NCBI RefSeq assembly: GCF_035285525.1
Contig: NZ_JAYKGW010000005.1
Location: 1 to 32,000 of the forward strand
Reading direction: 5' to 3'
DNA length: 32,000 nt
Source: Okeania sp.
Lineage (GTDB): Bacteria; Cyanobacteriota; Cyanobacteriia; Cyanobacteriales; Microcoleaceae
Shown: piece by piece, positions 2,442-29,949 of the stretch
Layout of the letters: the number at the start of each line of letters is the position of its first letter
Position numbering within the stretch: position 1 is the stretch's first letter
Program-made: the position numbers and the translations under genes
The notes under the pieces: model-generated
Told to the model about the DNA's origin: nothing
Database searches by the model: none
What the model saw: the letters and a program-made list of their open reading frames with translations, nothing else

Positions 2442-2455
2442 GGAACAAGGGGAAG

Positions 2456-3942: not shown

Positions 3943-4095
3943 AAGACTTACGTATAAACGCTATTGGTAGGGTGTGTTTTGCGTTCCGCAAAGCTCCGCT
4001 TTATATGTCGGCTCAAGCGCCGAAACGCTACGGGACATGTAAAGCGGTAGTGTAACGCACCAATACTCTATATACAGTGCCTTTGCGTAAGTCCT
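3943..4095. mobile_element. MITE, AGGACTTACGCA-terminus superfamily
   Basis: Ends are aagacttacgta ... tgcgtaagtcct. An identical 5-mer TAAAG flanks it at 3937-3941 and 4097-4101. Confidence 0.8.
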
Positions 4096-4578
4096 GTAAA
4101 GTTTGCTAAAAAAAGTCTGTTGGCGAAAGGAGGGAATGGGTATGGGGGCAATAGGAAGAAAGAATTGATAATTTATGTACCAGAATTGATTTAATTTTTT
4201 ATTTTTGGAAATGTCTAATAGTTACAGGCGTTAATTTTTCTACTCACCACTAAAGTAGTATTGGCCATACAAGATACTATAAAACTCAACTATTGCATTG
4301 CAAAAAGCACTATCTGGAACTGTATATCTTGACACCAAGTATGCCAAAGGACTAAAAGTGCATTCAGTCTTGAACGCAAGTATTAAGGAATTACCGAATA
4401 ATTAATAATTAATAATTAATAATTAATAGTCAATAATTATTCATTCAACAATTCGCGCCTTGAAGCCTCCCCTTGTTCGGGGATAAATCAAAAATTTTCA
4501 TGGGGTTTGTCAATCCCCTTCTTTAAAGAAGGGATAATTATTAATTATTAATTGCTGAACACTGGGCATACTCGACAA

Positions 4579-5181
4579 TTATTCAGGTTCTTTTTTTTCT
4601 ACTGCTATATTTCCTTCAATTTTAGACAAAGCTTGATTAACTTTTTCCTCCAATTTTTGAAATTGTTTTTGTTTTAAACTACTCCATTCTGGCAACTTAT
4701 TAATAAACTGTTGTAAATCAATAATTACACTGGTTAAATCCTGAACTTGTTGCAATTCTGGTCGTTGTTTAAACTGTCGAGAAGTTAATTCTAATTCTGT
4801 TTGCAATAGCTTCAAAGTTTGTTCTTGAATATCTAATCGCTTCGACAAATTTTTAATTGTTGTTAACAAAGGTTTTAACTTTTCTTCTTCCTGAACAATT
4901 TCTAATCCTTTAGTGATCGAGCCAAAAGAATGTATACTATTTTGTAGCTCAAAAATAGTTTCAGAAATTGACTGCTGATATTCCTCTAATTTTCGAGAAT
5001 TATCAAGTTTAATAGTTTGATTTTGTGCTGCCAACTTTCGTCTGTTAAAGAGATTTAAAACTAAAGATATAAAAATAAATTCTACTGGATAAATAATTGA
5101 TTTATTAAACATATAATTAGCAAAAATTCCGAAGGCAGAAGCAGCAAGAAAAATATATTCAAAGATTTCTAAAAGACGCAT
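4579..5181 (-). CDS. Hypothetical membrane-anchored coiled-coil protein
   Basis: 200-aa ORF. The N-terminus is hydrophobic (IFEYIFLAASAFGIFANYMF, VEFIFISLVLNLF) and the rest is heptad-like and Q/E/K/L-rich. I recognised no family motif. Confidence 0.55.
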   Translation of the reverse strand: MRLLEIFEYIFLAASAFGIFANYMFNKSIIYPVEFIFISLVLNLFNRRKLAAQNQTIKLDNSRKLEEYQQSISETIFELQNSIHSFGSITKGLEIVQEEEKLKPLLTTIKNLSKRLDIQEQTLKLLQTELELTSRQFKQRPELQQVQDLTSVIIDLQQFINKLPEWSSLKQKQFQKLEEKVNQALSKIEGNIAVEKKEPE

Positions 5182-5184
5182 TTT

Positions 5185-5217
5185 CAGTTATCAGTTATCA
5201 GTTATTAGTTGTTAGTT
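5185..5217. repeat. Tandem heptamer array (CAGTTAT / TAGTTGT), STRR-like
   Basis: cagttatcagttatcagttattagttgttagtt. The array resumes at 5306-5345, after the MITE at 5219-5304. Confidence 0.8.
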
Positions 5218-5218
5218 C

Positions 5219-5304
5219 AGGACTTACGCAGCAACCCTAAATATGGTGCAACCCCATACGCAATAGTTTTTTGACTCTATATATAGTACCTTGGCGTAAG
5301 TCCT
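5219..5304. mobile_element. MITE, AGGACTTACGCA-terminus superfamily (core type A)
   Basis: aggacttacgca ... ggcgtaagtcct. The flanking 5-mer TAGTT lies at 5213-5217 and 5306-5310. Confidence 0.8.
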
Positions 5305-5351
5305 GTAGTTGTTAGTTGTCAGTTATGAGTTGATCAGCAAAATTAATTAGT

Positions 5352-5454
5352 AGGACTTATGCAAAGAAACCCGGTACGAGCCTAGAAACCGGGTTTATGG
5401 GTTCAGTTCAAACCACGAGATTTTGTTGATAAACCCAGTTTCTGCGTAAGTCCT
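5352..5454. mobile_element. MITE, AGGACTTACGCA-terminus superfamily (core type B, GAAACCCGGT palindromes)
   Basis: aggacttatgca ... tgcgtaagtcct. The flanking 5-mer ATTAG lies at 5346-5350 and 5456-5460. Confidence 0.8.
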
Positions 5455-5475
5455 GATTAGATATCCTAACATATC

Positions 5476-5646
5476 AGGACTAAAGCCATGAGGAAAGCAA
5501 TTTTCTTGGCTTGAGATTGCTTTCAGTCCCGAATGCGTAGCATTCATGTCGCGGAGCGTTAACATGCGTTATGCGAAGCCCAAAACGCTGTCGCTGGTGC
5601 TGCAAGTCGCGCCATGACAGAAATACGTTGCGGGTGCGTAAGTCCT
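5476..5646. mobile_element. MITE, AGGACTTACGCA-terminus superfamily (core type C)
   Basis: aggactaaagccatgagg ... gacagaaatacgttgcgggtgcgtaagtcct. Close relatives lie at 8263-8409, 14524-14683 and 7832-7925 (internally deleted). The flanks here are only approximately duplicated (CATAT / ATATT). Confidence 0.7.
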
Positions 5647-5661
5647 AATATTTTCAATTAT

Positions 5662-5744
5662 TAGATATTTGCAAAAATAAAAAATTAAATCAATTCTTCT
5701 TCCCTGTTCCCAGTTAAGTCTTCCCTCTTTTCTGGAAATGTCTA
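5662..5744. mobile_element. MITE-like element, TAGA(C/T)AT... terminus family (inverted relative to 1500-1610)
   Basis: tagatatttgc ... ggaaatgtcta, with a shared aaaaataaaaaattaaatcaattc core. Confidence 0.55.
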
Positions 5745-6006
5745 TTAGTGATTCAGCGCTTCCTATTACTTGTGAGGTGCAAGCATCGCGGGCAAGATGC
5801 CCGCACTAGAATAATTTGATCATTTGTGCGAAATATGCTGTATAGCTCTGTGCGCAGGCAACAGCTCATTTGGCAATAGGGAGAATAAATTGCCGATAAT
5901 ATAAGACTATGAACTGCTTGGACACCTCCTGCAATTTGTAAATATTATAGCAATGCATGAGGATGGTGAGGTACACTTAACACTTACTGCAGTTCAGCCT
6001 TCCTTT

Positions 6007-6085
6007 GCTGTAACAACCACCGAAGGTTGTGTTACTAAAATTACTAAATAAAATTTTGTACCTCACGCGCCTCCGAAATTGCTGT
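6007..6085. repeat. Dispersed repeat (second copy at 10041-10142)
   Basis: gctgtaacaacc..gaaggttgtgttac...aataaaattttgtacctcacgcgcctccgaaattgctgt is shared by both loci. Confidence 0.75.
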
Positions 6086-6166
6086 CAGTGCGCACATTGC
6101 TATATATTCGCTCCTATTTATCAGTAATGTTAGCGATCGCTTCTTTCCACCCACGGCAAAACTTGT

Positions 6167-7573
6167 TCATATTTGTAAAATTATTCGTGCCAAATTGAAA
6201 TAAATCAAAACACCCAAAACATCAACAGCAGTTGTAATAAATGGTGCTGACATTAATGCGGGGTCTAACCCAAAAGAACGAAACAGGAATGGTAAAGAAG
6301 AACCAGCAACAGAAGCTAAAATTGAGATAGCAACTAAACTTACTCCCACCGTCACAGATACTTCTAAATTGCCATTGATAATAAAAAAGTACGCCCAAAC
6401 TGTTGCCAATAAACCCAGAATAATTCCCAGGATTGCACCAGCAGCAGCTTCACGCAGAATCACTTTTAATGGTCCTATTTTCCAGATTTCATCAGTATTC
6501 ATACCCCGAATGACAACGGTTGAAGACTGGGCCCCCACATTGCCACCAGTACCAGTCAATAATGGAATAAACGCTGCTAAAGCAACTACCCTTTGCAGAA
6601 CATCTTCTTGTGCTGTAATGATTCCACCTGTGACACTATTGGTCAACAATAACACAAATAACCAAACTACTCTTCTACGAGCAGCAGTAAACAAACTTAC
6701 CTGGAAATAATTATCACCATCAGACTGTACCCCACCCAAAGCATAAATATCTTCAGTGGTTTCCTGTTGCAAAATATCCAGAACATCATCAACGGTAATG
6801 ATACCCACCAGTCGTTGTTCGCTATCTACCACTGGTACTGCCAAAAAATCATAACGTTGAATAATATGGGCAACTTCTTCCTGGTCAGTACCAGTTTGCA
6901 CGGAGACAAAATCACGATTTATGATTTCACTGATAGTTTGGTCTAACTGGGAGGTAACTAAATCTCGCAGTGAGACAATACCTGTGAGGTGACGGTTAGT
7001 ATCAGTGACATAGAGAGAATAAACTGTTTCGGTAACGTGAGCTAATGAGCGAATACGTTCTAAACTTTGGGCAACTGTATATTCTTCTTTGAGGGAGATA
7101 TATTCCGGGGTCATTATTCGTCCCGCAGTACCCGCATTGTAACCCAAAAGTTGGGCGGTAGCTTTCCGTTCAGCAGGACTGAGTAGACCTAATAAACTCC
7201 GAACAACACTTGCTGGTAGTTCTTCAAATAGTTTAACGCGGTCATCAGGGGACATTTTATCAACAATATCTATGACTTCTTGGCGCTTGAATTTTTCGCA
7301 TAGAGACTGTTGTACACTGGAGTCTAATTGTTCATAAACGGCGATCGCTTCTGCTTTGGAAAGTAACCGAAAAGCAATGACTTGCATTGTTTCTGGTAAA
7401 CCTTCGATGGCTTCAGCAATATCCGGTGGTTGCACTGGAACTAACATAGCTTTAGCTCCAGATAAGTTATCTTGTTCTAATAGAGCTTGAAGTTGTGATC
7501 GAACTAATTCTCGTAATTCTTGACGAGAAATTGTTGCTACCGAAGGGGATGAATAGTTATTATTTTCAATCAA
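6167..7573 (-). CDS. mgtE: Magnesium transporter MgtE
   Basis: 468 aa with an MgtE N-domain, tandem CBS domains (LTGIVSLRDLV, LVGIITVDDVLD) and a C-terminal TM domain (GNVGAQSSTVVIRG, SAPFITTAVDVLGVLIYF). It has a TTG start, with GGAGGG ending 5 nt upstream of it. Confidence 0.92.
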   Translation of the reverse strand: MIENNNYSSPSVATISRQELRELVRSQLQALLEQDNLSGAKAMLVPVQPPDIAEAIEGLPETMQVIAFRLLSKAEAIAVYEQLDSSVQQSLCEKFKRQEVIDIVDKMSPDDRVKLFEELPASVVRSLLGLLSPAERKATAQLLGYNAGTAGRIMTPEYISLKEEYTVAQSLERIRSLAHVTETVYSLYVTDTNRHLTGIVSLRDLVTSQLDQTISEIINRDFVSVQTGTDQEEVAHIIQRYDFLAVPVVDSEQRLVGIITVDDVLDILQQETTEDIYALGGVQSDGDNYFQVSLFTAARRRVVWLFVLLLTNSVTGGIITAQEDVLQRVVALAAFIPLLTGTGGNVGAQSSTVVIRGMNTDEIWKIGPLKVILREAAAGAILGIILGLLATVWAYFFIINGNLEVSVTVGVSLVAISILASVAGSSLPFLFRSFGLDPALMSAPFITTAVDVLGVLIYFNLARIILQI

Positions 7574-14985: not shown

Positions 14986-17142
14986 CTATAAATTCATTGC
15001 ATTAGCACGAGCAGCAGCAGCTTCATCGGGGTGAATATTCAAGCGAGTTAAATTTACTCGACCCTTAGCATCTATTTCTCGGACTTTAACAATGACTTCA
15101 TCTCCGATTGCTAATTCATCTTCTACTTTACCCACGCGATAATCTGCAATTTGAGATATGTGAACCATTCCTTCTTTGCCAGCAAATACTTCCACAAAAG
15201 CACCGATAGGAATAATTCGAGTCACGCGACCAACATAAACATCTCCAGGATTCAGTTTCTTGGTCATTCCTTGAATAATATTGCACGCTTGTTTAGCTTT
15301 TTCACCATCCGCTGCTGCAATAGTTACGGTACCATCATCATCAATATCAATTTTGACTCCGGTTTCCTCAGTAATACCTTTAATAGTCTTACCACCAGGT
15401 CCGATGACTAAACCGATCATTTCTGGATCTATCTTGAAAGTTAAAAGTCGCGGTGCATAAGGTGACATATCCGGACGAGGTTCGTTGATAACACTCAACA
15501 TTTTTTCTAGAATATGTATCCGTGCTGGTTTAGCTTGATGAATAGCTTCAGCAATAATTTGTATGGATAAACCTGTGATTTTCATATCCATTTGTAATGC
15601 TGTAATTCCACTATCAGTACCAGCAACTTTGAAATCCATATCACCCAAAAAGTCTTCTATACCTTGGATATCTGTCAGGATACGAACTTCCTCATCTTCT
15701 TTAATTAAACCCATTGCAGCTCCACTCACAGGTTTAATAATAGGAACTCCTGCATCCATTAAACCAAGAGTGGAAGCACAAACAGAACCCATAGAAGTTG
15801 AACCATTGGAAGACAGAACTTCGGAAACCACCCGAATCACATAAGGAAAAATATCGCTTGCAGGTATGACAGGAAATAATGCACGTTCTGCTAAAGCACC
15901 GTGACCTATTTCCCGACGACCAGGCGATCGCAATGGTTTAGTTTCTCCGACGGAAAAAGGAGGGAAGTTATAATGGTGCAAATAACGTTTTTCGTCTTGG
16001 GGATGTAAGTCATCTGCTAATTCTTGAGCATCACCAGGAGTTCCCAAAGTCACAGCAGACATTACTTGAGTCAAACCGCGATTAAATAGAGAACTACCGT
16101 GAACTCTTGGTGGTAAGACTCCTACCCGACAAGAAACCGGACGAACTTCATCTAATTTCCGACCATCAACTCGGATACCTTCGTCAATAATTTGTTTACG
16201 CATCAGCTTTTTAGTAACACCCTTAAAAGTATTACCTAAAGCCATATTGTCAGATTCAACCATTACTCTGAGTGCTTCTTCTTCCGGAAGTTCAGCGATC
16301 GCTTCTGCCAGAGTTTCTTTAATTGCATCAAGTTTCTCATCCCGCTGATTTTTATCCAAATCGTATTCAGACAAAATCTGTTTAATAGATTCTGTTGCTT
16401 TTTCCTTAATATAGTCTTCTAAAGTGGGGTCTACTACTTTGGGTGCTTCTAGTGATGCTAGTTCAATACCCATTTCCGCAATAATTTCTCGTTGAGCTTG
16501 AATCAGGTCACAAACTGCTTCATAACCAAAATCAATTGCTTCAATGATGTCTTGTTCTGGCAATTGATTTGCCCCTGCTTCTACCATTATTACTCCGTGG
16601 GGAGAACCAGCAACCACCAAATCTAAATCACCATTTTTTACTTCACGATAAGTAGGATTTATGATAAAATCGTCTCCCACTAAACCTACCCGTACCGCAG
16701 CCATTGGGCCATAAAATGGTAATCTGGCCAACAATACGGCCACCGAACTACCTGTAACAGCTAGGACATCTGGTGGTACTTCCTCGTCCATAGACAATGT
16801 TGTGGCCACAATTTGAATATCATCCCGCAACCAACTAGGAAATAGGGGGCGTAGAGGTCTATCAATTAAACGACCTGTAAGAGTCACCTTTTCTGGAGGA
16901 CGACCTTCCCGACGCAAAAAGCCGCCCGGAATTTTCCCTCCAGCGTAGAGTCTTTCTTCGTAGTCCACCAAAAGAGGTAGAAAGTCTATTCCTTCTCTGG
17001 CTTTGGCTGTAGTAGCTGTGACTAATACTGCTGTATCTCCTGATTCTATCATCACAGCACCACCAGCTTGAGGCGCAAATACACCGACTTTTAGTCGAAT
17101 GTCCCTTCCATCAAAGGATATGGATTTGTTTATCTCTTCCAT
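14986..17142 (-). CDS. pnp: Polyribonucleotide nucleotidyltransferase (PNPase)
   Basis: 718 aa with two RNase PH domains, KH ([15 protein letters not shown]) and S1 ([26 protein letters not shown]) domains. The match to PNPase runs full length. Confidence 0.97.
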
Positions 17143-17574: not shown

Positions 17575-19845
17575 TTACATTCCGACTGCATCCCAAGCTG
17601 TACCTAGATTTGCCAGATCAACACTACTGTCTAATGTACCGTCATCATCCATGAACCAAATTTGGTTAGCTCCATTGTTTCCATTGCGCCACAATATATC
17701 TGCTATTCCATCATTATTGTAATCGGCAACTCCAGCGACATCCCAAGCTTTAGTTTGCTTTCCTGGATTAGCTGTATAGCTTGTTTTCCCGTCATCATCC
17801 ATGAACCAAATCTCGTTAGCTCCGGTTTTTCCATTGCGCCAGAGAATGTCTGCTACTCCATCATCATTAAAATCCTCTACTCCAGCGACATCCCAAGCTT
17901 TACTTTGCTTTCCTGGATTAGCTGTATAGCTCTTTTTGCCATCATCATCCATGAACCAAATTTGATTAGCTCCTTTCTTGCCATTTCGCCAGAGAATATC
18001 TGGTACTCCATCATTATTAAAATCCTCTACTCCAGCGACATCCCAAGCTTTACTTTGTTTTCCTGGATTAGCTGTATAGCTCTTTTTCCCGTCATCATCC
18101 ATGAACCAAATCTGGTTAGTTCCTTTCTTGCCATTACGCCAGAGAATGTCTGCTACTCCATCATCATTAAAATCATCAACTCCAGCGACATCCCAAGCTT
18201 TACTTTGTTTTCCTGGATTAGCTGTATAGCTCTTTTTCCCGTCATCATCCATGAACCAAATTTGGTTAGTTCCTTTCTTGCCATTGCGCCAGAGAATGTC
18301 TGCTACTCCATCATTATTAAAATCATCAACTCCAGCGACATCCCAAGCTTTACTTTGCTTTCCTGGATTAGCTGTATCGCTGGTTTCGCCATCATCCAGG
18401 AACCAAATCTCGTTACCTCCGGTTTTTCCATTCCGCCAGAGAATGTCTGCTACTCCATCATCATTAAAATCAAAACGGACTGGTTCGTTACTGACACCGT
18501 TACCGCGAGTTATTGTGCTGCCAAATAAGTCATCGTTGTCTTGGTCATCCCCTGATGCAATGTTGTCTGGAGCAGAACCATTTTTGTCAGCATCAACAGC
18601 ATTATTAGAAGAGAATGTAGTAGCCTCATCAATAGTAACAGTAGGCAGAGAAGTTGGCATTCCTTGGTCGCTACCATCCGGGTTTTCATCAGTGAGTTTC
18701 ATAGCAAATATTGCACCACCGAGACCTTCTCCATTGCTTACACCAGAGCCACCATTTGCCTTATTATTACTCAAGGTACTTTGGGAAATATTTAGACTGC
18801 CGGAACGGATGAATACAGCTCCACCCAGTCCATCGCCACCGGAGCCACCATAGGTAGTGTAGCCACTGGAGTTACCACCATTGCCACCGCCGTAGCCACC
18901 ATAGCCTCCAACGCCAACACCATCGTAGCTACCTGAGCCTCCGAAGCCACCGCCTCCGCCACCACCAAAGCCACCGTCGCCACCGGAACCACTGCCACCG
19001 TAGCCACTGTATTCACCGTAGTAATAGCCGTAGTAGTAGTAACCGTAATAGCTGTAATAGCCGCCGTAATAGCCGAAGTCGTAGCCACCGTAGCCACCAA
19101 AGCCACGGCCTCCGCCACCACCAAAGCCACCGTCGCCACCGTAGCCACTGCCACCGTAGGTGTAGCCACCGTCGCCGATGCCACCCGTACCGTCGCCACC
19201 GTCGCCTCCGAAGCCACCGGAACCACCGAAGCCACTGCCAGCCAAGCCGTAGTAGCCGCCGTAGCTGCTACCTACACCCTTACCACCGTTGCCAAGGAAG
19301 CCACCGTCGCCACCATAGCCATCACCGTAATCACTTATATCATCAGCACCATTATTCTCAGACAACCTCGTAGTAAATATACCGCCACCTACATTGCTAG
19401 CAGTCTCATCACCAGAATTTCCACCTATTGCCTGATTTTTACTAAATTTAACATTATCTACAGAAACATTACCATCATAGATAAATAGGGCACCACCCAT
19501 TCCGGCGCCACCGCCTCCTAGCTTACTGTTTCCCCCCTGTGCTTTACCTTTAGTTAGAGTTAAGTTGTTAATATCCACTGTTCCTGACTTGACGAACAAT
19601 GGACGGTATTTATTGTCACCACTAATAGTAGCTGTTTCCACCTTACCTGTCTTTGGATCGTCCCCTGTTATGGCAATATTACTATCAATGAGTTGAATCA
19701 TTTCACCAGATAATGTGACATTCTTCTTGATAACGATAGTATCGTCCCCTGGGCTGTTATTGGCATCCAAAATTGCTTTACTGAGAGTTCCTTTAGTTTT
19801 TCCTGTACCATTATCTTTGGCTTTTGTTACTTGAAATATAGCCAT
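17575..19845 (-). CDS. Large chimeric repeat protein with an N-terminal PMP-like beta-helix, an internal Gly/Tyr tract and C-terminal FG-GAP/VCBS-type repeats
   Basis: I place the start at MAIFQVTKAKDNGTGK (ATG at 19845, GGAG ending 11 nt upstream of it) rather than at 20145. The start region MAIFQVTKAKDNGTGKTKGTLSKAILDAN and the GGA[LVI]F...F/LSxN units indicate a beta-helix. Six 50-aa D-x-N-x-DG-x-x-DILWRN repeats are FG-GAP/VCBS-like. Confidence 0.85.
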   Translation of the reverse strand: MAIFQVTKAKDNGTGKTKGTLSKAILDANNSPGDDTIVIKKNVTLSGEMIQLIDSNIAITGDDPKTGKVETATISGDNKYRPLFVKSGTVDINNLTLTKGKAQGGNSKLGGGGAGMGGALFIYDGNVSVDNVKFSKNQAIGGNSGDETASNVGGGIFTTRLSENNGADDISDYGDGYGGDGGFLGNGGKGVGSSYGGYYGLAGSGFGGSGGFGGDGGDGTGGIGDGGYTYGGSGYGGDGGFGGGGGRGFGGYGGYDFGYYGGYYSYYGYYYYGYYYGEYSGYGGSGSGGDGGFGGGGGGGFGGSGSYDGVGVGGYGGYGGGNGGNSSGYTTYGGSGGDGLGGAVFIRSGSLNISQSTLSNNKANGGSGVSNGEGLGGAIFAMKLTDENPDGSDQGMPTSLPTVTIDEATTFSSNNAVDADKNGSAPDNIASGDDQDNDDLFGSTITRGNGVSNEPVRFDFNDDGVADILWRNGKTGGNEIWFLDDGETSDTANPGKQSKAWDVAGVDDFNNDGVADILWRNGKKGTNQIWFMDDDGKKSYTANPGKQSKAWDVAGVDDFNDDGVADILWRNGKKGTNQIWFMDDDGKKSYTANPGKQSKAWDVAGVEDFNNDGVPDILWRNGKKGANQIWFMDDDGKKSYTANPGKQSKAWDVAGVEDFNDDGVADILWRNGKTGANEIWFMDDDGKTSYTANPGKQTKAWDVAGVADYNNDGIADILWRNGNNGANQIWFMDDDGTLDSSVDLANLGTAWDAVGM
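17578..18474. repeat. Six tandem 150-bp coding repeats, near-identical at the DNA level
   Basis: The landmark (g/a)tcatcatccatgaaccaaat recurs at 17651, 17801, 17951, 18101 and 18251 (exact 150-bp spacing), with a diverged copy near 18399. Confidence 0.9.
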
Positions 19846-20046
19846 TTGTGTTAATTCTCCTGAGTAATTAATTGTTGTACTTAGGGGGACGTTGAAGGTA
19901 ACGTCTCTAGGGGTTTGGTTTCCCAACCCTACGTTTACGTTCTGAAATTTTACTGATGCTAGGGAAGACCTCTCCCCCAACCCCTCTCCTACTTTTGAGA
20001 GGGGAGCAATCTTCTCTTCTCCCTTCCCTAACTCCCCCCTTTCAAA

Positions 20047-20107
20047 GGGGGGTTGGGGGGGATAGTTGTGGGGTTGTGGGGTTGGGGGGAATAGTTGTAG
20101 GGTTGGG
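20047..20107 (+). other. Cluster of G-runs (G6, G7, G4, G4, G6, G3, G3), candidate G-quadruplex or hairpin region
   Basis: ggggggttgggggggatagttgtggggttgtggggttggggggaatagttgtagggttggg lies immediately 3' of the sulfotransferase stop. It is preceded by the hairpins cccctctc/gagagggg (19981-20004) and cccccc/gggggg (20034-20052). Confidence 0.5.
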
Positions 20108-20110
20108 AGG

Positions 20111-20941
20111 TTAACTCTGAAGTAATCCCGGATAGAACAACTCATAATACCATCGGTAATTACTCCTTAGCTCCGCTTCAATCCGCGGTGACACCCAATG
20201 ACGTTCTGGTGCTTTGACCTGAGTATAAGTACGATGAAGATATTTAAACCGATAGAAACTATCCGCCTCCCCTGGTTGTACTACCAAGTTATTCGGATCG
20301 AGTTCATAATTTCCCACCCCCAACCAAGTAAACAAATCTTTCATTGTTGCTACTGGTTCGGACATTAAATGCTCGAATACCAGAAAATACATTCGTTGTT
20401 GGCAAGATTGGTTCATATCTTGTATCCCTTGCAGCGATCGCAATGGTCCGCCCACCACCCCTTTTTTCCCCAGTAAAGCATCAGCACGTCCGTAGGGAGA
20501 CAGAGAAGCCAAGTCATCTGGGAAATCCAACCATACTGTTTTTTGATGTTGGGTTTCAATAGATGCTAAAATTTGTCCTAACTCCCGGACACACACCACC
20601 ATTTTTACATCTGGGTCTAATTCTAAAGCTAATTCTACTTGATTTAACCAACCCCGATGTTTGTCTACTACCATCTGAGAGTCGATTTCCGACCACCATG
20701 CTTTAGCAAAAGCACGACAAGCACATTGTAATCTTGCATATACAGTTTCAAATTCCCCATCTAACTGAGCCAGAAAAAAATTGTTATCACTCAAATGCGC
20801 CCTAATAGCTTGCAGAGTCGGCAACAGGGGTGAACTCATACCATCACAGTAGATTTCTGGGTGTTCTGCCAGGAGTTGACAGGTTAAAGTTGAGCCTGCG
20901 CGGGGCAAACCCGTGACGCAGACTAATTTTCCGTTAAACAT
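20111..20941 (-). CDS. Sulfotransferase family protein (PAPS-dependent)
   Basis: 276 aa with an N-terminal 5'-PSB P-loop-like motif CVTGLPRAGSTL and a 3'-PB-like VVCVRELGQILAS. Confidence 0.85.
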   Translation of the reverse strand: MFNGKLVCVTGLPRAGSTLTCQLLAEHPEIYCDGMSSPLLPTLQAIRAHLSDNNFFLAQLDGEFETVYARLQCACRAFAKAWWSEIDSQMVVDKHRGWLNQVELALELDPDVKMVVCVRELGQILASIETQHQKTVWLDFPDDLASLSPYGRADALLGKKGVVGGPLRSLQGIQDMNQSCQQRMYFLVFEHLMSEPVATMKDLFTWLGVGNYELDPNNLVVQPGEADSFYRFKYLHRTYTQVKAPERHWVSPRIEAELRSNYRWYYELFYPGLLQS

Positions 20942-21443: not shown

Positions 21444-22244
21444 TTAAACAGAATCCGGATCTAATCCTAACTCTTTTAGTTTAGCAGCCAGACGTTCGGC
21501 AAGTTGACGCTCTTGTTGAGCAATTTGCTGTTGTTGGTCAGCTCGTTGACGCTCTTGTTGAGCAAGTTGCTGTTGTTGGTCAGCCCGTTGATGCTCTCGT
21601 TCGGCAGCGGTTAATACTAAGTTTCCTTGGGAATCATAAAATCTTAACCATACTCCTGACTCTTGCAGAATATTTCCTTCCCAAGTACCTAACCATAACC
21701 CTAATTGATCGCACCACAACCATCCTCGTTCATTAGGTTGTAAATCTTGATATTGCTTATTTTGCAGATGCCATCCCTGTAACGAACTCGGTTCAAATGG
21801 ATTAAAGATAAAATAATTTTGGGTATGGAATGTTCGCTCATAAATATCCTTTTTTTCGCCAATATCTACACTAGCAGTCGAAGGAGACGTGAGTTCAACT
21901 ATCACATCTGGATAACGCCCTTGTTCTTGCCAAACTACCCATCCTTGACGATCTGTTTTGCCATCAACATCCAAGACCACAAAGAAATCAGGGCCTTTGA
22001 AGTCACGATTTTTGGCTTGAGTGCTACTGTAATAAATAAACATATTGCCACCCGCAAAAAAATCGTTACGGTCTGACCAATGTTGATATAATGAATCTAT
22101 CAGAAGATTCATGGCAATACGGTGACGGTTGCTTTCCAAGGTTTCTCCATCATCAAAGATTAAGTCTGTAGGTGGCATCGGTGGTTCCCACTCTGGAGTG
22201 ACCTCGGTGAGTGACTCGGCTTTGGGAGATGTTTCTGTAATCAT
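21444..22244 (-). CDS. Uma2 family (DUF820) putative endonuclease with a C-terminal Q-rich repeat tail
   Basis: 266 aa. PDFFVVLDV...PDVIVELTSPSTASVDIGEKKDIYE...NYFIFNP is the PD-(D/E)xK-like Uma2 core. The tail has two 14-aa repeats, QRADQQQQ(L/I)AQQER, from a 42-bp tandem repeat near 21500-21600. Confidence 0.88.
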   Translation of the reverse strand: MITETSPKAESLTEVTPEWEPPMPPTDLIFDDGETLESNRHRIAMNLLIDSLYQHWSDRNDFFAGGNMFIYYSSTQAKNRDFKGPDFFVVLDVDGKTDRQGWVVWQEQGRYPDVIVELTSPSTASVDIGEKKDIYERTFHTQNYFIFNPFEPSSLQGWHLQNKQYQDLQPNERGWLWCDQLGLWLGTWEGNILQESGVWLRFYDSQGNLVLTAAEREHQRADQQQQLAQQERQRADQQQQIAQQERQLAERLAAKLKELGLDPDSV

Positions 22245-22382: not shown

Positions 22383-23222
22383 CTAGGTTGTGTTGTAGTG
22401 GTAGTAATCATTAGCTTCTTCGTTAGCTTTTTCTATACGGTTTATGACTTCCCGTTCCCATTTGACATATTCTTCTGGAGTTTGAAGAGTTCGATAAACC
22501 TTCTTCTTCTCGTCTTTAGTCTCTGAATCTATTTCTTCTGCTGTTGTAGCTGGAGAACTTTCTACATACTCTCTTACTAAACTTTCTAGCAGTTTTACTC
22601 CATTATGTTCTTCAATAGCTGCCTTCTCAGCGAACTTATTCCATAAATCCCAAGGCAATGGAACCTTTGTAGTTTTCTTCTCGTGATTAGGATTCACCAA
22701 AGAATCTATTATCTCAGTCGTGATTTTCTTCTTAGTTGCTTTGGCATAATCTATGACCCACTCCCAACTTCCTATAATGTCTGGAAGACCTTCTTTAGTT
22801 TTCTTGAAAGTTGAAGCTAAAGCAGAACATTGACTAACGTTAGATGGGATGTTTTTAAACCCATGACATAGTAGTTCCCAACCAATCCTAGCAGCTTTAA
22901 TGACGTGCTGAACATACCTCCAACTCTTAGGATAATGTTCTCTGCAGTAAGTCCGAAAATTCCATTTTTTGCCCTTAGTTTCTTCAAAACGAGTATCAAG
23001 TTGAAGTTGTGCAAGCAAATACCCCTCAATAAGATAAGAGTGGGCAGCAGCAAACATCATGGACTGAATGTCCTGGAAACTATCCTTTAAAGAAAAACTA
23101 GGTGTATTTGTTTTTCGGTAAATATCAACCAGCGATTTAGTCCAGGTAGGAAAGCGATCGAGAGTTTCTTTTCCTGGATCTGGAAAGTAGATGGAATTTG
23201 GTTTAACTAAATTTTTGTTCAT
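22383..23222 (-). CDS. Hypothetical protein (orphan)
   Basis: 279-aa ORF with coding-like composition and a K/E-rich C-terminus. I recognised no family motif. Confidence 0.55.
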   Translation of the reverse strand: MNKNLVKPNSIYFPDPGKETLDRFPTWTKSLVDIYRKTNTPSFSLKDSFQDIQSMMFAAAHSYLIEGYLLAQLQLDTRFEETKGKKWNFRTYCREHYPKSWRYVQHVIKAARIGWELLCHGFKNIPSNVSQCSALASTFKKTKEGLPDIIGSWEWVIDYAKATKKKITTEIIDSLVNPNHEKKTTKVPLPWDLWNKFAEKAAIEEHNGVKLLESLVREYVESSPATTAEEIDSETKDEKKKVYRTLQTPEEYVKWEREVINRIEKANEEANDYYHYNTT

Positions 23223-23626: not shown

Positions 23627-23980
23627 ATGGCTGGAAAACCTTTAAGAGATGAGAAAAAGACAGGTCTGCACTTGACAGTAACTCCTACAACGAAACGAAC
23701 TTTAAAACAGATAGGGAAGTCGTTGGGAATGAGTCAAAGCGAACTTGTGGAGACGTGGGCTGCGGAAGCTCGCAAATCAAGCGAACCAAAAACTACTGGG
23801 AAAATTCTTGAGCGCTTAAAAGCACTAGAAAAATCACACTTGGATTATGTGGGAACTCAGGGCAAAAGACTAGAAAAGCTGTTAGCCGAAAATCATGAAC
23901 ATAAAACCAAGATCAAGAAAGAAATACGGTTTTTAGAAGAAGAGATACAGGCGCTTATTCTTGAATCGTCTGAATCTTAA
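23627..23980 (+). CDS. Hypothetical protein, possible ribbon-helix-helix DNA binder with a coiled-coil tail
   Basis: 117 aa. LHLTVTPTTKRTLKQIGKSLGMSQSELVETWA has a strand-helix-helix pattern, followed by heptad-like LEKLLAENHEHKTKIKKEIRFLEEEIQAL. Confidence 0.45.
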   Translation: MAGKPLRDEKKTGLHLTVTPTTKRTLKQIGKSLGMSQSELVETWAAEARKSSEPKTTGKILERLKALEKSHLDYVGTQGKRLEKLLAENHEHKTKIKKEIRFLEEEIQALILESSES

Positions 23981-24038: not shown

Positions 24039-24434
24039 CATGGCATTAAAAATCCTACTTAAGTAATATTGCCGAAGTCAGAAGTAGGGGAGAAAGATTG
24101 TTGTTTAGTTTCGTTATGCCTATTAATCCGTGTATCCATGGCATAATCCCTGTGAGCGCCTCAAATCAGCTATTACAGGCAAGATGCCTCTGCTACAAAA
24201 ATAAACCGCTATAATAATCCTACTTACTGTTCATCGCCAATGATGAATTTTGCATCTAGTTATTTTAACTTGGATGCCGTTTTTTATTTTCAAAGATTTA
24301 CACTTAGGGCTGACGGAGGCGAACCCAGAAACCCGGTTTCTCCTAAGTGTTTATTGTTAAAAACAATGATTTATTGTACAAACCGGGTTTCTTTGCATAA
24401 ATTCAGAATATAACCTTTTTTACAAATTTTTAAG

Positions 24435-27400
24435 ATGGCAATTTTACATAGTTTTTGGCTGACCGAAAATCAACAACCTAGTTCTTTATTTGTTTGGGGA
24501 GAAGCTTGGCAAAAAATCACAGAAGATGATGCTGGTGAAATAGAAAATATTACTAATAATCCTTATGCAATAACTTTGGATGAACTGTTGAAATTATCTG
24601 AGGAAAATACCAATTTCTCTTTGAAAAAGGATAAAAAATCTACAATTAAAACTTTAGCTATTCCTACAAAATTATCAGAATCTAACCAAAAAATATATCC
24701 TATTCATTCTGGCACTAATTTATCAGAAATTTCCGAAAAGTTATATTTTTATCCCTGGCAAATAGAAGGAATTTGTCTAGAACCTCTAGAAGCAATCAAA
24801 TTTTTACAATCTATTCCTTTGGGAAAAACTACTGAATCTTTCATTGGTGGAGATTTAAAGTTTTGGTCTCATGTGGCTCGATGGAGTCTCGATTTATTAG
24901 CAAGATGTAAATTTTTACCTTCTATTGAACAAACATTAAATCAAGAATTTATTGCAACTTGGCAACCTTTACTTGATAGTTCTAAAGACCAAACTAGACT
25001 GAAAAATTTTACTCTACAAATGCCTCTGGTTTGTCGTACATATAACCTTGATTGGCAATCACATCTTTCTCTAGAAAATCTCCAAAATTTACAAATAATT
25101 ACTGAAAATAATTCTGCAAAATTTCCCTTAGTTCAATCTAGTCAAGAAATTATTCAAGATTTCTTAAAAAATATAATAGACACACAAATTCGACAACTAT
25201 CAACCGAAATATCTCTAATAAAAACTACTTCATTACATCCCTCAATTAGACAATGGTTGAAATCCTTATTAGGAAAATCTAGTTTAAAATTACCTGCTAC
25301 CAAAGAAACACAACAAATTAGCAGAATACTTGATAATTGGAAATCTCCTTTACAAGAATTTCAAACTACAGAAAAGAAATTTATTACTTGTTTCCGTCTC
25401 TACTCTCCATCTAATAATTCCCAAAAATGGCAACTCGAATATTGTCTCCAAGCAGTCGATAACCCAGAATTTTTTGTTGATGCGAAAACTATTTGGGAAA
25501 ATCCTGTAGCAAGTTTAAATTATCAAGGAAAAACAATTGAACTTCCTCAAGAAACTCTGCTAAAAGGTTTAGGTTTAGCATCAAGAATTTATCCAATTAT
25601 TGAACCTAGTTTACAAGAAGCAACTCCCCAATATTGTCTACTAACTCCACAACAAGCTTATGAATTTATTAAAAGTGGAAGTTCGCGGTTTACTGACAGT
25701 GGACTGGGGGTAATTTTACCGCCTAGTTTGGCGAACCGAGAAGGATGGGCGTCTCGTTTGGGCCTCAGTATTCAGGCCACTGCTCCAAAAACGAAAAAAA
25801 CTGAAAGACTGGGGTTGAAAAGTCTTCTCAATTTTCAGTGGCAATTATCTATTGGAGGCCAGAAATTAACTAAGGCTGAATTTGACAAATTAGTGGCTAA
25901 GGATAGTCCTTTGGTAGAAGTTAATGGGGAATGGGTGGAACTGCAACCTCAAGATGTCCGAGCAGCACAAAATTTCTTTGCTACTCGTCAAGACCAAATG
26001 GCTTTATCTTTGGAAGATGCTTTACGGTTAGCGACTGGGGATACTCAGACTGTGGAAAAGTTGCCTGTTGTTAATTTTGAAACTGGGGGACAACTTCAGG
26101 AACTTTTGGATACTTTGACTAATAATCGTTCCTTGGAAGAGATTCCTACACCTGAGAATTTTCAGGGCGAACTGCGGGAATATCAAGCACGGGGTGTTAG
26201 TTGGCTAACTTTTCTGGAACGTTGGGGTTTAGGTGCTTGTTTGGCGGATAGCATGGGATTGGGAAAATGCGTATCGCATGATACAGAATTAAATATAAAT
26301 AGTATGGTATTGCAAGCGGAGGAAATTTGGCAAGTTTATGCGGGTGAGGCCGAATTTGATGGGGAAGGGTTTTGGGCAAAACCAAATCGGGAATTATTGG
26401 TAAATTCTCTGGATGAGACAACAGGAAAAATTGTGGTGGCTCCTATTCGGCGGTTATATAGGCAGCAGGTACGAGAAAAGTTACGAAGGGTGAGGTTGAA
26501 AGATAAGAGCAGTATTGTTATTACGAAAAGTCATAAATTATTTATTCGCGATAGTTGGAAAAATGATTTTCAGGTGGGAGATTATGTTTGTGTACCTGCA
26601 AAATTGGTTTGGGATGGGAAAGCACAGGATAAAGATTTAGTCAAATTTCTTGCTTGGCAAATAGCTGAAGGATATGAAGCACCTGATATGAGAGGAGTAG
26701 TTATCTCCCAAAAAAATAAACCACTTTTGGCAGAATTACTAAAGACTCTTGAAAACTTAAGTAAAAGATATGGTATTAAAATAAATCGTCCTGCTATTCG
26801 TCCCTATAGTGATAAAAAAGATTGTTACCAACTTATCATACATAGTGTAGAATATCGGAAATTTTTAGAAGGAAAAGGATATAAGTGGGGGAAGCGATCG
26901 CTTGATAAAACTATTCCTTCATTTATTATGCAAGCTGACTTAGAAAGTATTAGAATTTTTCTCAGGAATTATTTTGATGCGGAAGGTTCGGCAAATAAAA
27001 CTATAGGAAATGTTGAAATTTCTACAGCATCATCTCTACTTATTCAACAATTATCTATCCTACTTAGACGTTTTGGAATTTGGATGACAATATCTCCTAA
27101 ACAAAAACGAGCTACTAATGGTACTGGAATTTTTCGTACTTATTATATTGGTACATTTAGCGGTAACTCAGCACGTCGTTTTTTACAAGAAATAGGATTT
27201 AATCAACTAGAAAAACAAGAAAAACTTAAGTCAATCTGTGATAAAAAAGCTAACTCAAATGTTGAAGGAATCCCTGCTTCGGATATAGTCGCCGAAGTAG
27301 CCAATAAAACTAAACTACCACTGCTACATTTAGGAATACATAGTAAAATTTATATTGACGGTTCCCAAGAATTTTCTCCTGCTAGTTTAGAGAAAGTTAT

Positions 27401-29033
27401 TAACAGTATCGAACATATTATTAGTGGAACTGCGGAAGAAGAATATCGTCAACTTAAACCTTCTAAATGGACGACTAAAACTTTAGAAGCTTATTCTTTA
27501 TTGAATATTTTGGAACTAGAAATTCAGAAAACTCGCCTACAAAAATTACTCAATCAAGAAGTCTATTATTGTCAGATAGAATCTATCGAAGATATAGAAT
27601 ATGAGGGATGGGTTTATGACTTTGAAATAAGTAAACATCATAACTTTGTAGCAAATAATATTCTTTGTCATAACACTATTCAAACTATAGCATTTTTGCT
27701 CAATCAACAAGAAAAAGAAGCACTCGAATCACCCACATTATTAGTTTGCCCTACCTCCGTATTAGGTAACTGGGAAAGAGAAGTAAAAAAATTCGGACCT
27801 ACTTTAAAATTAATAGTTCATCATGGTGATAAACGTGCTAAAGGTAAAGAATTTGCTAAAGCAGTAAAAGACAAACATTTAGTTATAACCAGTTATGCTT
27901 TATTGCATCGAGATGAGAAAATATTACAGACAATAAAATGGCAGTCAGTAATAGTTGATGAAGCGCAAAATATTAAAAATCCAGATGCAAAACAATCTCA
28001 AGCAGTTAGAAAATTAGACGCATCTTTTAGAATGGCTTTAACAGGAACTCCCGTAGAAAATCGTCTTTCAGAACTTTGGTCAATTTTAGATTTTTTGAAT
28101 CCTGGATATTTAGGTCAAAAGCAATTTTTCCAGCGTCGGTTTGCTATTCCTATCGAAAAATATGGAGATACAAATTCATTACAAACTTTGCGTTCTTTAG
28201 TTCAACCTTTCATTTTGCGTCGTCTCAAAACTGACAAAGATATTATTCAAGATTTACCAGAAAAACAAGAAAATACTATCTTTTGCCCTTTAGCAAATGA
28301 ACAAGCAAAACTATATCAAAATATAGTGGAAAATTCTTTAGCAGAAATTGAAGCTGCTGATGGTATTCAACGAAAAGGAAAAATTTTAGCCTTATTAGTA
28401 AAACTGAAACAACTCTGTAATCATCCTGTACTTTTACAAATTAAAAAAGGCAGTAAGAAAAAAGTAGAAATAAGTGATGAAAATTCTGGAAAATTACAAC
28501 GAATAGGAGCAATGTTAGAAGAAATAATGTCTCAAGGAGAACGAGCAATTATCTTTACTCAATTTGCTGAATGGGGAAAAATTTTACAACCTTATTTACA
28601 GAAAATTTTAGGTAGAGAAATATTGTATTTATATGGAGCTACCCGCAAAAATAAAAGAGAAGAAATGGTAGACCAATTTCAATTAGATCCTCAAGGTCCG
28701 CCGATAATGATTTTATCATTAAAAGCTGGAGGAACAGGTTTAAATTTGACTCGTGCAAATCATGTTTTTCACTTTGATAGATGGTGGAATCCGGCAGTAG
28801 AAAATCAGGCAACAGATCGGGTATTTAGAATTGGTCAAACTCGGAATGTTCAGGTACATAAATTTGTTTGTACCGGAACTTTAGAAGAGAAAATACACGA
28901 TATAATTGAAAGTAAAAAAGAGTTGGCAGAGCAAGTTGTTGGTACAGGTGAACAATGGTTAACTGAACTAGATACAGAACAGTTGAGAAATTTATTAATA
29001 TTTGATAGAAATAAAGTAATTGAAGAAGAGTAG
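24435..29033 (+). CDS. SNF2-family helicase/ATPase with an N-terminal bacterial SNF2-associated region, interrupted by an intein
   Basis: 1532-aa ORF. Motif I is split as LADSMGLGK|[intein]|TIQTIAFLL. Motif II is VIVDEAQNIKN and motif III is LTGTPVENRLSELWSILDFLNPG. The helicase-C region reads LSLKAGGTGLNLTRANHVFHFDRWWNPAVENQATDRVFRIGQ. The extein product would be 1063 aa. Confidence 0.95.
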   Translation: MAILHSFWLTENQQPSSLFVWGEAWQKITEDDAGEIENITNNPYAITLDELLKLSEENTNFSLKKDKKSTIKTLAIPTKLSESNQKIYPIHSGTNLSEISEKLYFYPWQIEGICLEPLEAIKFLQSIPLGKTTESFIGGDLKFWSHVARWSLDLLARCKFLPSIEQTLNQEFIATWQPLLDSSKDQTRLKNFTLQMPLVCRTYNLDWQSHLSLENLQNLQIITENNSAKFPLVQSSQEIIQDFLKNIIDTQIRQLSTEISLIKTTSLHPSIRQWLKSLLGKSSLKLPATKETQQISRILDNWKSPLQEFQTTEKKFITCFRLYSPSNNSQKWQLEYCLQAVDNPEFFVDAKTIWENPVASLNYQGKTIELPQETLLKGLGLASRIYPIIEPSLQEATPQYCLLTPQQAYEFIKSGSSRFTDSGLGVILPPSLANREGWASRLGLSIQATAPKTKKTERLGLKSLLNFQWQLSIGGQKLTKAEFDKLVAKDSPLVEVNGEWVELQPQDVRAAQNFFATRQDQMALSLEDALRLATGDTQTVEKLPVVNFETGGQLQELLDTLTNNRSLEEIPTPENFQGELREYQARGVSWLTFLERWGLGACLADSMGLGKCVSHDTELNINSMVLQAEEIWQVYAGEAEFDGEGFWAKPNRELLVNSLDETTGKIVVAPIRRLYRQQVREKLRRVRLKDKSSIVITKSHKLFIRDSWKNDFQVGDYVCVPAKLVWDGKAQDKDLVKFLAWQIAEGYEAPDMRGVVISQKNKPLLAELLKTLENLSKRYGIKINRPAIRPYSDKKDCYQLIIHSVEYRKFLEGKGYKWGKRSLDKTIPSFIMQADLESIRIFLRNYFDAEGSANKTIGNVEISTASSLLIQQLSILLRRFGIWMTISPKQKRATNGTGIFRTYYIGTFSGNSARRFLQEIGFNQLEKQEKLKSICDKKANSNVEGIPASDIVAEVANKTKLPLLHLGIHSKIYIDGSQEFSPASLEKVINSIEHIISGTAEEEYRQLKPSKWTTKTLEAYSLLNILELEIQKTRLQKLLNQEVYYCQIESIEDIEYEGWVYDFEISKHHNFVANNILCHNTIQTIAFLLNQQEKEALESPTLLVCPTSVLGNWEREVKKFGPTLKLIVHHGDKRAKGKEFAKAVKDKHLVITSYALLHRDEKILQTIKWQSVIVDEAQNIKNPDAKQSQAVRKLDASFRMALTGTPVENRLSELWSILDFLNPGYLGQKQFFQRRFAIPIEKYGDTNSLQTLRSLVQPFILRRLKTDKDIIQDLPEKQENTIFCPLANEQAKLYQNIVENSLAEIEAADGIQRKGKILALLVKLKQLCNHPVLLQIKKGSKKKVEISDENSGKLQRIGAMLEEIMSQGERAIIFTQFAEWGKILQPYLQKILGREILYLYGATRKNKREEMVDQFQLDPQGPPIMILSLKAGGTGLNLTRANHVFHFDRWWNPAVENQATDRVFRIGQTRNVQVHKFVCTGTLEEKIHDIIESKKELAEQVVGTGEQWLTELDTEQLRNLLIFDRNKVIEEE
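26268..27674 (+). mobile_element. Full-length class 1 intein (469 aa) with a LAGLIDADG homing-endonuclease domain
   Basis: Starts at Cys612 (CVSHDTEL, block A). Block B is VITKSHKL (TxxH). The two dodecapeptide motifs are FLAWQIAEGY and FLRNYFDAEGS. Block F is GWVYDFEISKHHNFVANN. It ends ILCHN (1080) followed by Thr+1. Removal restores GLGKTIQ. Confidence 0.9.
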
Positions 29034-29088: not shown

Positions 29089-29949
29089 ATGAACTTACAA
29101 AGTGACAAAGAATGGTGGACTCAACAATGGATAGACTTGTTAAATTCTTATCGCTTTAAAAAACGATTAGAAAGAGCCAGAAATTATGCCAGACAAGGTA
29201 ATGTTTTGAGTCTAAAATTTAAAGAACAAAGAATTATTGCTCAAGTTCAAGGAACAGCACCCGAACCATACAAACTATCTTTATGGTTAGATACTTTCTC
29301 TGATGAAGATTGGAATTATATCATTCAAACTTTGTCAGAAAGAGCAATTTTTACTGCCAAATTATTAGCAGGAGAAATGCCTCAAAATATAGAAGAAGTT
29401 TTTGCTGCTAATGGTTTAAGATTATTTCCTTTTACCTTAGAAGAAATTCATTCTCGATGTGATTGCCCAGACAAAGCTAGAGTTTGTAAACATATCGCAG
29501 CAGTATATTATTTATTAGGCGATCGCTTCAGTGACGACCCATTTTTATTATTTCAATTACGGGGTCGTACCCAAGAAAAAATATTAGCAGAACTTCGTCA
29601 AAAACGTGGTCAAAGTGAATATGAAAAAGCCACAGAAACGGAACAAATAAAATCTGAAAAAACTCAAGAACAGCAATCAGTTACTAACTCAATATATGCA
29701 ACTTCAGTTATTCCAGAAAATATAAAACTTGAGCAAATATGGGAATATAATCAACAATTAGATTCTTCCTTAATAGTAATTACACCATCTCCAAGTAATG
29801 AAACAATTTTAGATGTTTTAGGAAAAATTTCTTTAGGTGCATCGACTGATATTGTTATGGATTATTTCCAGAAAATTTATCAAAATATTAGTCAACAAGC
29901 AGTCATAACTGCATTAAAACAGGGAGAAGATGAGGGTGATAATGCATAA
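29089..29949 (+). CDS. SWIM zinc-finger protein
   Basis: 286 aa. CDCPDKARVCKHIAAVYYLL is the SWIM CxCx(n)CxH signature. The gene starts 55 nt downstream of the SNF2 gene on the same strand. Confidence 0.85.
   Translation: MNLQSDKEWWTQQWIDLLNSYRFKKRLERARNYARQGNVLSLKFKEQRIIAQVQGTAPEPYKLSLWLDTFSDEDWNYIIQTLSERAIFTAKLLAGEMPQNIEEVFAANGLRLFPFTLEEIHSRCDCPDKARVCKHIAAVYYLLGDRFSDDPFLLFQLRGRTQEKILAELRQKRGQSEYEKATETEQIKSEKTQEQQSVTNSIYATSVIPENIKLEQIWEYNQQLDSSLIVITPSPSNETILDVLGKISLGASTDIVMDYFQKIYQNISQQAVITALKQGEDEGDNA

Follow-up and report, generated by a model that had tools for sequence, protein, structure and literature searches.

The DNA analysed here, a 32,000-nucleotide stretch from an Okeania genome (Oscillatoriales, Microcoleaceae; contig NZ_JAYKGW010000005.1, hereafter the window), carries on its forward strand a gene for a 1532-amino-acid (aa) SNF2 helicase of the sll1366 family, the ATP-binding loop of which is split by a 469-aa insert. 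We are highly confident that this insert, precursor residues 612-1080, is a class 1 intein with a nested LAGLIDADG homing endonuclease, located at the GLGK/T junction of the Walker A motif (the solidus marks a splice junction or insertion point throughout), and that it represents a catalogued, lineage-inherited element; splicing, DNA cleavage and inactivity of the unspliced precursor are predicted from its sequence. The gene product is 100% identical to the NCBI entry 'SNF2-related protein [Okeania sp.]', a product name in which the intein goes unmentioned. Pfam assigns to the host protein the domains DUF3670 ('SNF2 helicase protein'), SNF2-rel_dom (aa 1073-1332) and Helicase_C (aa 1361-1467). 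The protein falls within the family described by the NCBIfam model NF058636 ('sll1366 family intein-prone helicase'), with a score of 797.5 bits for a cut-off of 550. The match covers the full model (profile 1-589 of 589) and spans aa 1-611; the fact that a full-length match stops at aa 611 indicates that the model was built to end at the insertion point.

The intein boundaries can be read from the translation. The N-terminal junction is GLGK/C, with the Cys as residue 612, and the C-terminal junction is CHN/T, with the Asn as residue 1080. In silico excision of residues 612-1080 yields ...LADSMGLGKTIQTIAFLL..., and the predicted spliced-junction peptide is ...MGLGK-TIQTIAFLLNQQEK. The open reading frame (ORF), intein coordinates, 469-aa length and restored GLGKTIQ motif of the original prediction, which was made from the sequence alone, were all confirmed at this level, and Cys1, the TKSH block B, two AEG motifs, block F and the terminal HN followed by Thr+1 were located where it had placed them (Table 1).

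The check with intein-splicing and LAGLIDADG profile hidden Markov models (HMMs) that had been proposed at the same time gave scores above the curated cut-offs for all models. Pfam Intein_splicing (PF14890) reaches 79 bits (cut-off 35.8), TIGR01445 intein_Nterm 26.8 (cut-off 24.5, intein aa 1-93), TIGR01443 intein_Cterm 20.5 (cut-off 15.6, intein aa 448-469) and Pfam LAGLIDADG_3 (PF14528) 80.7 bits (cut-off 22.5). Residue conservation was counted over intein-bearing orthologues, which make up 114 of the best 120 matches to the full protein. Cys1 and the block B residues T86 and H89 are each present in 114/114 of these, as are D451, H458, N459, C467, H468 and N469 at the C-terminal end. On the extein side, Lys-1 does not vary among the 121 aligned sequences, and Thr+1 is found in all 120 aligned sequences covering the position. 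The class 1 assignment is based on Cys1, the TxxH block, blocks F and G with His-Asn and Thr+1, the curated HMMs, the existence of an empty allele and the HINT fold (see below).

We also considered a class 3 assignment by analogy with the Deinococcus radiodurans Snf2 intein, which likewise resides in an SNF2-family host and is the only experimentally studied Snf2 intein found in our literature search. As described by Brace et al. 2010 (cited in PMC4031507), the Deinococcus element is a class 3 intein, without N-terminal nucleophile and with a branched intermediate on a block F Cys, whereas the Okeania intein has Cys1 and a block F Asp and is thus not related to it in mechanism. A class 3 assignment was rejected given that Cys1 is invariant, block F contains Asp451 within 'VYD', and the block F Cys of the WCT triplet is missing.

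The insert is precisely absent from intein-less orthologues. Five of these (P0107, P0113, P0115, P0116 and P0119), among them sequences from Okeania sp. SIO1I7, Okeania sp. SIO2B3 and two Microcoleaceae metagenome-assembled genomes (MAGs), are 1060-1065 aa long with exteins 83-84% identical to those of the window, and display a clean 469-aa gap from K611 to T1081. The expected clean insertion at GLGK/T is thus borne out, although the original prediction was wrong to name Nostocales as the relatives: the proper comparison is with Oscillatoriales (Okeania/Trichodesmium). In Okeania sp. SIO1I7 (L001), the empty allele reads GGTCTCGGTAAG/ACCATCCAAACA (...ATGGGTCTCGGTAAG/ACCATCCAAACAATA...) around the insertion point, and its gene neighbourhood, like that of the filled allele from a Trichodesmium MAG (L002), is the one seen in the window. 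Furthermore, a 220-aa mini-intein (P0183), which lacks aa 108-296 and consists of the splicing parts only, occupies the same insertion site.

These observations bear on the reading that the 469 aa are not an intein at all, but a lineage-specific domain kept in the mature 1532-aa helicase. No supporting point for this was found. It would have to accommodate a complete and invariant set of class 1 splicing residues, intein HMMs above curated cut-offs, a fold matching solved inteins, an insert that splits a Walker A GK/T intact in the intein-less orthologues, and a version reduced to the splicing parts at the very same site. Judged by the sequence, such a reading appears effectively refuted, and we give it next to no chance of being correct. 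Profile HMMs, the structure model and the empty-allele alignment agree on a class 1 intein with a LAGLIDADG endonuclease in SNF2 motif I.

Table 1 Intein, host gene and neighbouring features (window positions; aa numbering is that of the intein unless stated otherwise)
Feature	Position	Strand	Basis
Whole precursor gene, sll1366-family SNF2 helicase plus intein, 1532 aa + stop	24435..29033	+	ORF list, Pfam, NCBIfam
N-extein, precursor aa 1-611, last residues Walker A GLGK	24435..26267	+	NF058636 alignment
Intein, 469 aa, precursor aa 612-1080	26268..27674	+	Junctions, Pfam, orthologue gap, AlphaFold2/Foldseek
N-terminal splicing (HINT) region, aa 1-110	26268..26597	+	TIGR01445, beta strands in model, Pho RadA alignment
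Block A Cys1	26268-26270	+	
Block B T-K-S-H, aa 86-89	26523-26534	+	
LAGLIDADG homing-endonuclease core, aa 111-330	26598..27257	+	Pfam LAGLIDADG_3, model, Foldseek
LAGLIDADG motif 1 FLAWQIAEGY, aa 127-136	26646-26675	+	
HIP1 octamer GCGATCGC, codons for K-R-S-L, inside intein	26894..26901	+	
LAGLIDADG motif 2 FLRNYFDAEGS, aa 231-241	26958-26990	+	
Helical region between endonuclease core and C-terminal splicing region, aa 331-430	27258..27557	+	Model helices
C-terminal splicing region, aa 431-469	27558..27674	+	TIGR01443, aligns to Pho RadA intein C-terminus
Block F GWVYDFEISKHHNFVA, aa 447-462	27606-27653	+	
Block G NNILCHN, aa 463-469, Thr at +1	27654-27674	+	
C-extein, precursor aa 1081-1532, first residue Thr+1 of Walker A (TIQ); remaining SNF2 ATPase and Helicase_C	27675..29033	+	Pfam
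SWIM zinc-finger protein, 286 aa, conserved partner gene of the helicase family	29089..29949	+	Pfam SWIM 20.3 bits, cut-off 19.6
FG-GAP/W-rich protein, 856 aa, between pnp and SNF2 gene	17575-20145		
Sulfotransferase, between pnp and SNF2 gene	20111-20941		
Uma2-family endonuclease, between pnp and SNF2 gene	21444-22244		
Two ORFs without Pfam match, between pnp and SNF2 gene	22383-23222, 23627-23980		

The 469-aa intein was modelled with AlphaFold2 from a 32-sequence alignment, giving a mean predicted local distance difference test (pLDDT) score of 92.4 and a predicted template modelling (pTM) score of 0.89. The model shows beta-rich N- and C-terminal parts as well as two alpha-beta-beta-alpha-beta-beta-alpha units, assigned by DSSP to aa 122-202 (H122-E135-E143-H151-E173-E187-H194) and aa 225-308 (H225-E241-E248-H256-E274-E289-H299). 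A helical stretch occupies aa 314-429, with the blocks of lowest pLDDT (69-83) located within the aa 331-430 region. The catalytic acidic residues are conserved in 113/114 (E134, WQIAE134G) and 114/114 (E239, YFDAE239G) orthologues. Both acidic residues and both half-domains of a monomeric, two-motif LAGLIDADG enzyme are hence present.

The top Foldseek match in the PDB is the TliVMA intein 7qss (E 6.6e-25, TM 0.65), followed by the full-length intein endonucleases PI-PfuI 1dq3, PI-TkoII 2cw7, PhoVMA and PI-SceI. The endonuclease part matches I-DmoI and I-Tsp061I (TMt 0.64-0.72), and the splicing parts superpose on the RadA, CDC21(-1) and PolII inteins with a root-mean-square deviation of 2.2-2.6 Å. 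TliVMA (7QSS), PI-PfuI (1DQ3), PI-TkoII (2CW7) and PI-SceI (1VDE/1LWS) have the same architecture of a HINT domain with a nested two-motif LAGLIDADG enzyme (Foldseek E 7e-25 to 1e-9, TM 0.46-0.66). They differ from the Okeania intein in sequence (10-20% identity) and in their hosts and target sites, and it is not evident that the aa 331-430 region corresponds to their accessory domain. Among solved structures, the Pyrococcus horikoshii (Pho) RadA intein (PDB 4E2T/4E2U/2LQM, E 7e-10) comes nearest in sequence. It too is a class 1 intein with an HN end and is located in an ATPase P-loop (PMC4513877), but it has an archaeal recombinase as host. Its solved chains of 168-174 aa align to the splicing parts only (about 25% identity), and not to the endonuclease.

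A sequence of events can be proposed by extension of the established class 1 pathway. In the precursor, the ATP-binding loop would be split by 469 aa, presumably leaving the protein ATPase-dead. Splicing would start with an N-S acyl shift at Cys1, assisted by block B Thr86 and His89, following which the Thr+1 hydroxyl would attack the thioester (transesterification) to form a branched intermediate. Cyclisation of Asn469, assisted by His468, would then release the intein, and an O-N shift would complete a 1063-aa helicase with the GLGKTIQ loop intact. Once free, the intein would be expected to act as a monomeric LAGLIDADG enzyme with two motifs and to cut intein-less alleles at the GLGK/TIQ coding sequence, with recombinational repair copying the intein into the cut allele (homing).

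The original prediction could not tell whether this allele or site was on record. Both are already recorded and widespread, and the element is a routine member of a curated intein family. The cyanobacterial sll1366-family SNF2 inteins (NF058636; the HepA/COG0553 inteins of PMC4760082) share with it the host family, the GLGK/T site, the 465-469-aa architecture and the catalytic residues. The difference lies in allele-level sequence only and is not one of kind: the Okeania intein is 73-86% identical to alleles of the Trichodesmium/Okeania clade and 54-64% identical to those of Microcoleus, Nostoc and Calothrix. Carriers among the best 120 matches include Trichodesmium, Microcoleus, Nostoc, Calothrix, Scytonema, Crinalium, Leptolyngbya and others. 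Many of these are named 'SNF2 family DNA or RNA helicase/intein/homing endonuclease' by the Joint Genome Institute (JGI), and some 'protein splicing site' by NCBI. Table 1 of Novikova et al. 2016 (PMC4760082) places SNF2/HepA (COG0553) among the 15 most frequent bacterial intein hosts and lists cyanobacteria; it joins NF058636 in confirming the earlier belief that SNF2 inteins have been catalogued in cyanobacteria. The P-loop is described as an insertion hot spot for inteins in PMC4760082 and PMC4513877. In addition, HomeBase lists a LAGLIDADG enzyme from Trichodesmium erythraeum IMS101 with the SNF2-family gene SMARCAL1 as predicted target (PMC3159444). We infer that this enzyme is the orthologous intein. 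A 'Ter Snf2' intein is probably also listed in InBase.

A more distant relative resides in a different helicase. The intein of a 719-aa metagenome protein named 'intein/homing endonuclease' by JGI (P0152) is 35% identical over the whole 469 aa, occupies the equivalent Walker A position (GSGK/C...VLCHN/T) and has the same C-H-N terminus. Its host is a UvrD-type helicase of superfamily 1 (SF1; Pfam UvrD-helicase, AAA_19), not an SNF2 protein. The alignment suggests that one intein lineage may occupy the P-loops of unrelated helicase superfamilies; such a lineage might hop between SF1 and superfamily 2 (SF2) helicases by recognising P-loop-coding DNA.

The history of the Okeania intein was assessed by comparison of the window (24435-29033) with the filled Trichodesmium allele (L002, 47-4642). 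Synonymous divergence (dS) is 0.34 for the intein and 0.33 for the N-extein. The HIP1 octamer within the intein is found at a shared intein offset (624-627) in 6/6 Okeania/Trichodesmium/Dapis alleles examined; the 32-kb window contains 12 HIP1 copies versus 0.02 expected from dinucleotide-preserving shuffles. The original prediction took the HIP1 octamer and a host-like base composition as signs of long residence rather than recent arrival. The octamer lies at the position given, the intein has a GC content of 33.7% compared to 35.0% and 32.2% for the N- and C-extein respectively, and long residence is supported for the Okeania lineage. As the intein dS equals that of the N-extein and the HIP1 position is common to the clade, the sequence comparison supports an old, vertically inherited intein in the Okeania/Trichodesmium lineage. 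A recent horizontal arrival in this Okeania genome was rejected on the same grounds.

In the wider family, intein identity follows host divergence, with exteins that are 83-95% identical accompanied by inteins at 73-86%, and N-exteins at 49-57% and C-exteins at 72-78% accompanied by inteins at 54-64%. Divergence from L002 is uneven along the gene, as the last 49 intein codons have a dS of 0.08 and the C-extein one of 0.60. The window C-extein is about as diverged from the empty Okeania allele (dS 0.54) as it is from the filled Trichodesmium allele. Such a pattern may reflect an earlier recombination or gene conversion event close to the 3' splice junction.

A search with the spliced extein revealed that empty alleles are common, comprising all Planktothrix and several Okeania, Microcoleus and Phormidium. 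Presence and absence of the intein change at least 13 times on a neighbour-joining tree of 136 representative exteins. Filled alleles are monophyletic within the Okeania/Trichodesmium clade, and in Microcoleus and Phormidium near-identical exteins occur with and without the intein. The intein is 465-469 aa long in 97/103 parsed alleles. Besides the mini-intein, variants include the loss of 76 aa from the first half of the endonuclease (L077, Coleofasciculus), a 91-aa deletion of the helical region (L075, a Nostocaceae MAG), a 3x13-aa tandem repeat (IGINPVLKDGVFV) in the helical region (L042, Brasilonema), a 109-aa insertion in the helical region (L057, Dapis) and a gene broken within the intein (L065, Dapis). 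Such a patchy distribution, along with the degenerate and mini forms, is consistent with a homing cycle that is still in progress.

The same intein at GLGK/C is also found outside the cyanobacteria, in Chloroflexota (P0122, 55%; P0136, 47%) and Blastocatellia (P0176). Cyanobacterial-type sll1366-family genes are furthermore present in MAGs labelled Acetobacteraceae (L047, intein present, 63% identity) and Actinomycetota (P0249), the phylum labels of which probably reflect mis-binning rather than transfer.

We sought synonymous flank differences between filled and empty alleles as a sign of target-site immunity or co-conversion. The filled allele of Microcoleus sp. AR_TQ3_B6 (L003, gene 1501-6297) and the empty allele of Microcoleus sp. 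F8-D3 (L004, gene 1501-4821) display 9 synonymous differences at -10..+14 nt, such that 8/9 of the GLGK/TIQLI codons differ silently (wobble or first-codon positions). Elsewhere, the exteins of this pair show about 1-8 differences per 100 nt over ~1 kb each side (background about 3%). This cluster could be the result of target-site immunity or of a short co-conversion tract. A general codon signature at the junction was rejected, since flanking codons vary freely among filled alleles across 70 further loci and the empty allele L080 has flanks resembling those of the window.

To what extent selection acts on the endonuclease was determined from ratios of nonsynonymous to synonymous divergence (dN/dS) for 465 pairs among 61 inteins from species-representative genomes. 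Across the family, the medians are 0.154 (endonuclease core), 0.142 (N-terminal splicing part), 0.185 (helical region) and 0.055 (C-terminal splicing part). The endonuclease domain thus appears to be maintained by selection across the family, as expected of a still-homing enzyme. The earlier suggestion that the endonuclease may still be functional is consistent with this purifying selection on the core and with the conservation of E134 and E239. Family-wide selection is, however, not proof of endonuclease activity in the Okeania genome. Between the window and L002, dN/dS is 0.28 for the intein overall, 0.46 for the endonuclease core, 0.14-0.20 for the splicing parts and 0.10-0.14 for the exteins.

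Some observations weigh against the interpretation proposed here. In the closest pair, the dN/dS of the endonuclease core exceeds that of the exteins, and some relaxation of the endonuclease in the window's lineage is possible. All sampled Nostocales alleles are filled, a pattern that could represent fixation and not active homing, with sampling biased to intein-bearing matches. Our literature search found no experimental paper on any sll1366-family intein, and for the exact allele it yielded nothing beyond the Deinococcus intein, survey articles and brief references to Sll1366 as a putative SNF2 helicase. The core value, the highest of the gene in this comparison, would also be explained by a splicing-competent intein with an inactive endonuclease, persisting only because an inexact deletion within Walker A would destroy helicase function. 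The monophyly of the filled Okeania/Trichodesmium alleles makes recent homing needless for this lineage. On the other hand, the two catalytic Glu residues and the motifs around them are preserved in this intein and in 113-114/114 relatives, the family-wide dN/dS of the core is low like that of the splicing domain, and the near-identical Microcoleus exteins with and without intein imply recent gain or loss. We therefore consider loss of endonuclease function plausible but unlikely.

A further alternative concerns Cys467 (window 27666-27668), two residues before the terminal Asn. This residue is also found in the UvrD relative, while the position is without Cys in the Pho RadA intein (LHN) and in P0155 (AHN), and it is a possible disulfide partner of Cys1. 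The Cys1/Cys467 pair and a length-constant, near-universal retention in heterocystous cyanobacteria could point to a domesticated, regulatory intein: a conditional-splicing switch on the SNF2 ATPase, gated by redox state or stress and kept by the host, with the endonuclease retained only for spread. The near-constant length, the presence in every sampled Nostocales orthologue and the conservation of Cys467 in 114/114 orthologues are in line with such a role. Precedents are the Pho RadA intein, the closest solved relative, which is P-loop-located and has splicing controlled by extein and temperature (PMC4513877), and the redox control published for a DnaB intein (PMC6195587). We nevertheless regard a regulatory role as improbable. 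Alleles without the intein occur widely and are evidently viable (in all Planktothrix and in several Okeania and Microcoleus), mini and degenerate variants occur, and the purifying selection on the endonuclease and its acidic residues would be needless for a pure splicing switch. Regulatory and mobile roles are not mutually exclusive.

As a discovery, a catalogued class 1 intein of this kind carries little weight: it is a textbook example of an intein in a P-loop, and its host belongs to a helicase family already labelled 'intein-prone' by NCBI. Its value lies firstly in annotation, as the predicted mature helicase is 1063 aa and not 1532 aa in length, and the NCBI name omits the intein. Secondly, filled, empty, mini and internally deleted alleles coexist in cyanobacteria, some of them in near-identical exteins, which is of use for the population genetics of homing. 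The element is also a possible source of reagents, both as a Thr+1 class 1 intein and as a LAGLIDADG enzyme directed against the coding sequence of the conserved SNF2 motif I.

Base composition varies along the host gene. GC content is low (28-30%) across the first ~1 kb (window 24400-25400), an N-terminal region in which orthologues show little conservation and differ by many indels. Directly 5' of the intein (25600-26400, the conserved DUF3670/motif I region) it rises to 42% with a strong positive GC skew. Candidate assignments of the helicase to anti-phage defence were rejected. ZorD (285.6 vs a cut-off of 1500) and the DISARM protein DrmD (97.4 vs 950 and 68.7 vs 610) indicate generic SNF2 similarity only, and the score for the defence helicase DpdE is far under the curated NCBIfam cut-off. 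Scores this far below the ZorD and DrmD cut-offs give no reason to assign the helicase to a defence system.

The helicase gene is followed by that of the SWIM zinc-finger protein. The order of SNF2 gene and a 275-286-aa ORF is kept in L001, L002, L003 and L004 (a SWIM-type ORF of 281-286 aa in L001, L002 and the window), with a DUF928 gene and a CHASE2 cyclase gene continuing the window-like order in L001 and L002 only. In the Blastocatellia protein P0176, SWIM is fused N-terminally to the intein-bearing SNF2 helicase. This fusion supports a putative functional link between the two adjacent genes.

Upstream, pnp (PNPase) is located at 14986-17142 on the minus strand, 7.3 kb from the SNF2 gene, whereas the distance is 0.4-3.6 kb in L001, L003 and L004, with pnp again upstream. 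The extra interval in the window, which contains the last group of genes in Table 1, looks like a lineage-specific insertion. A search for tRNA genes across the window returned none, and hence no tRNA-associated island. The remainder of the window consists of ordinary chromosomal housekeeping genes, including those for pirin, VKOR, MgtE, KDPG aldolase, YkuD, Ap4A phosphorylase and Hpt.

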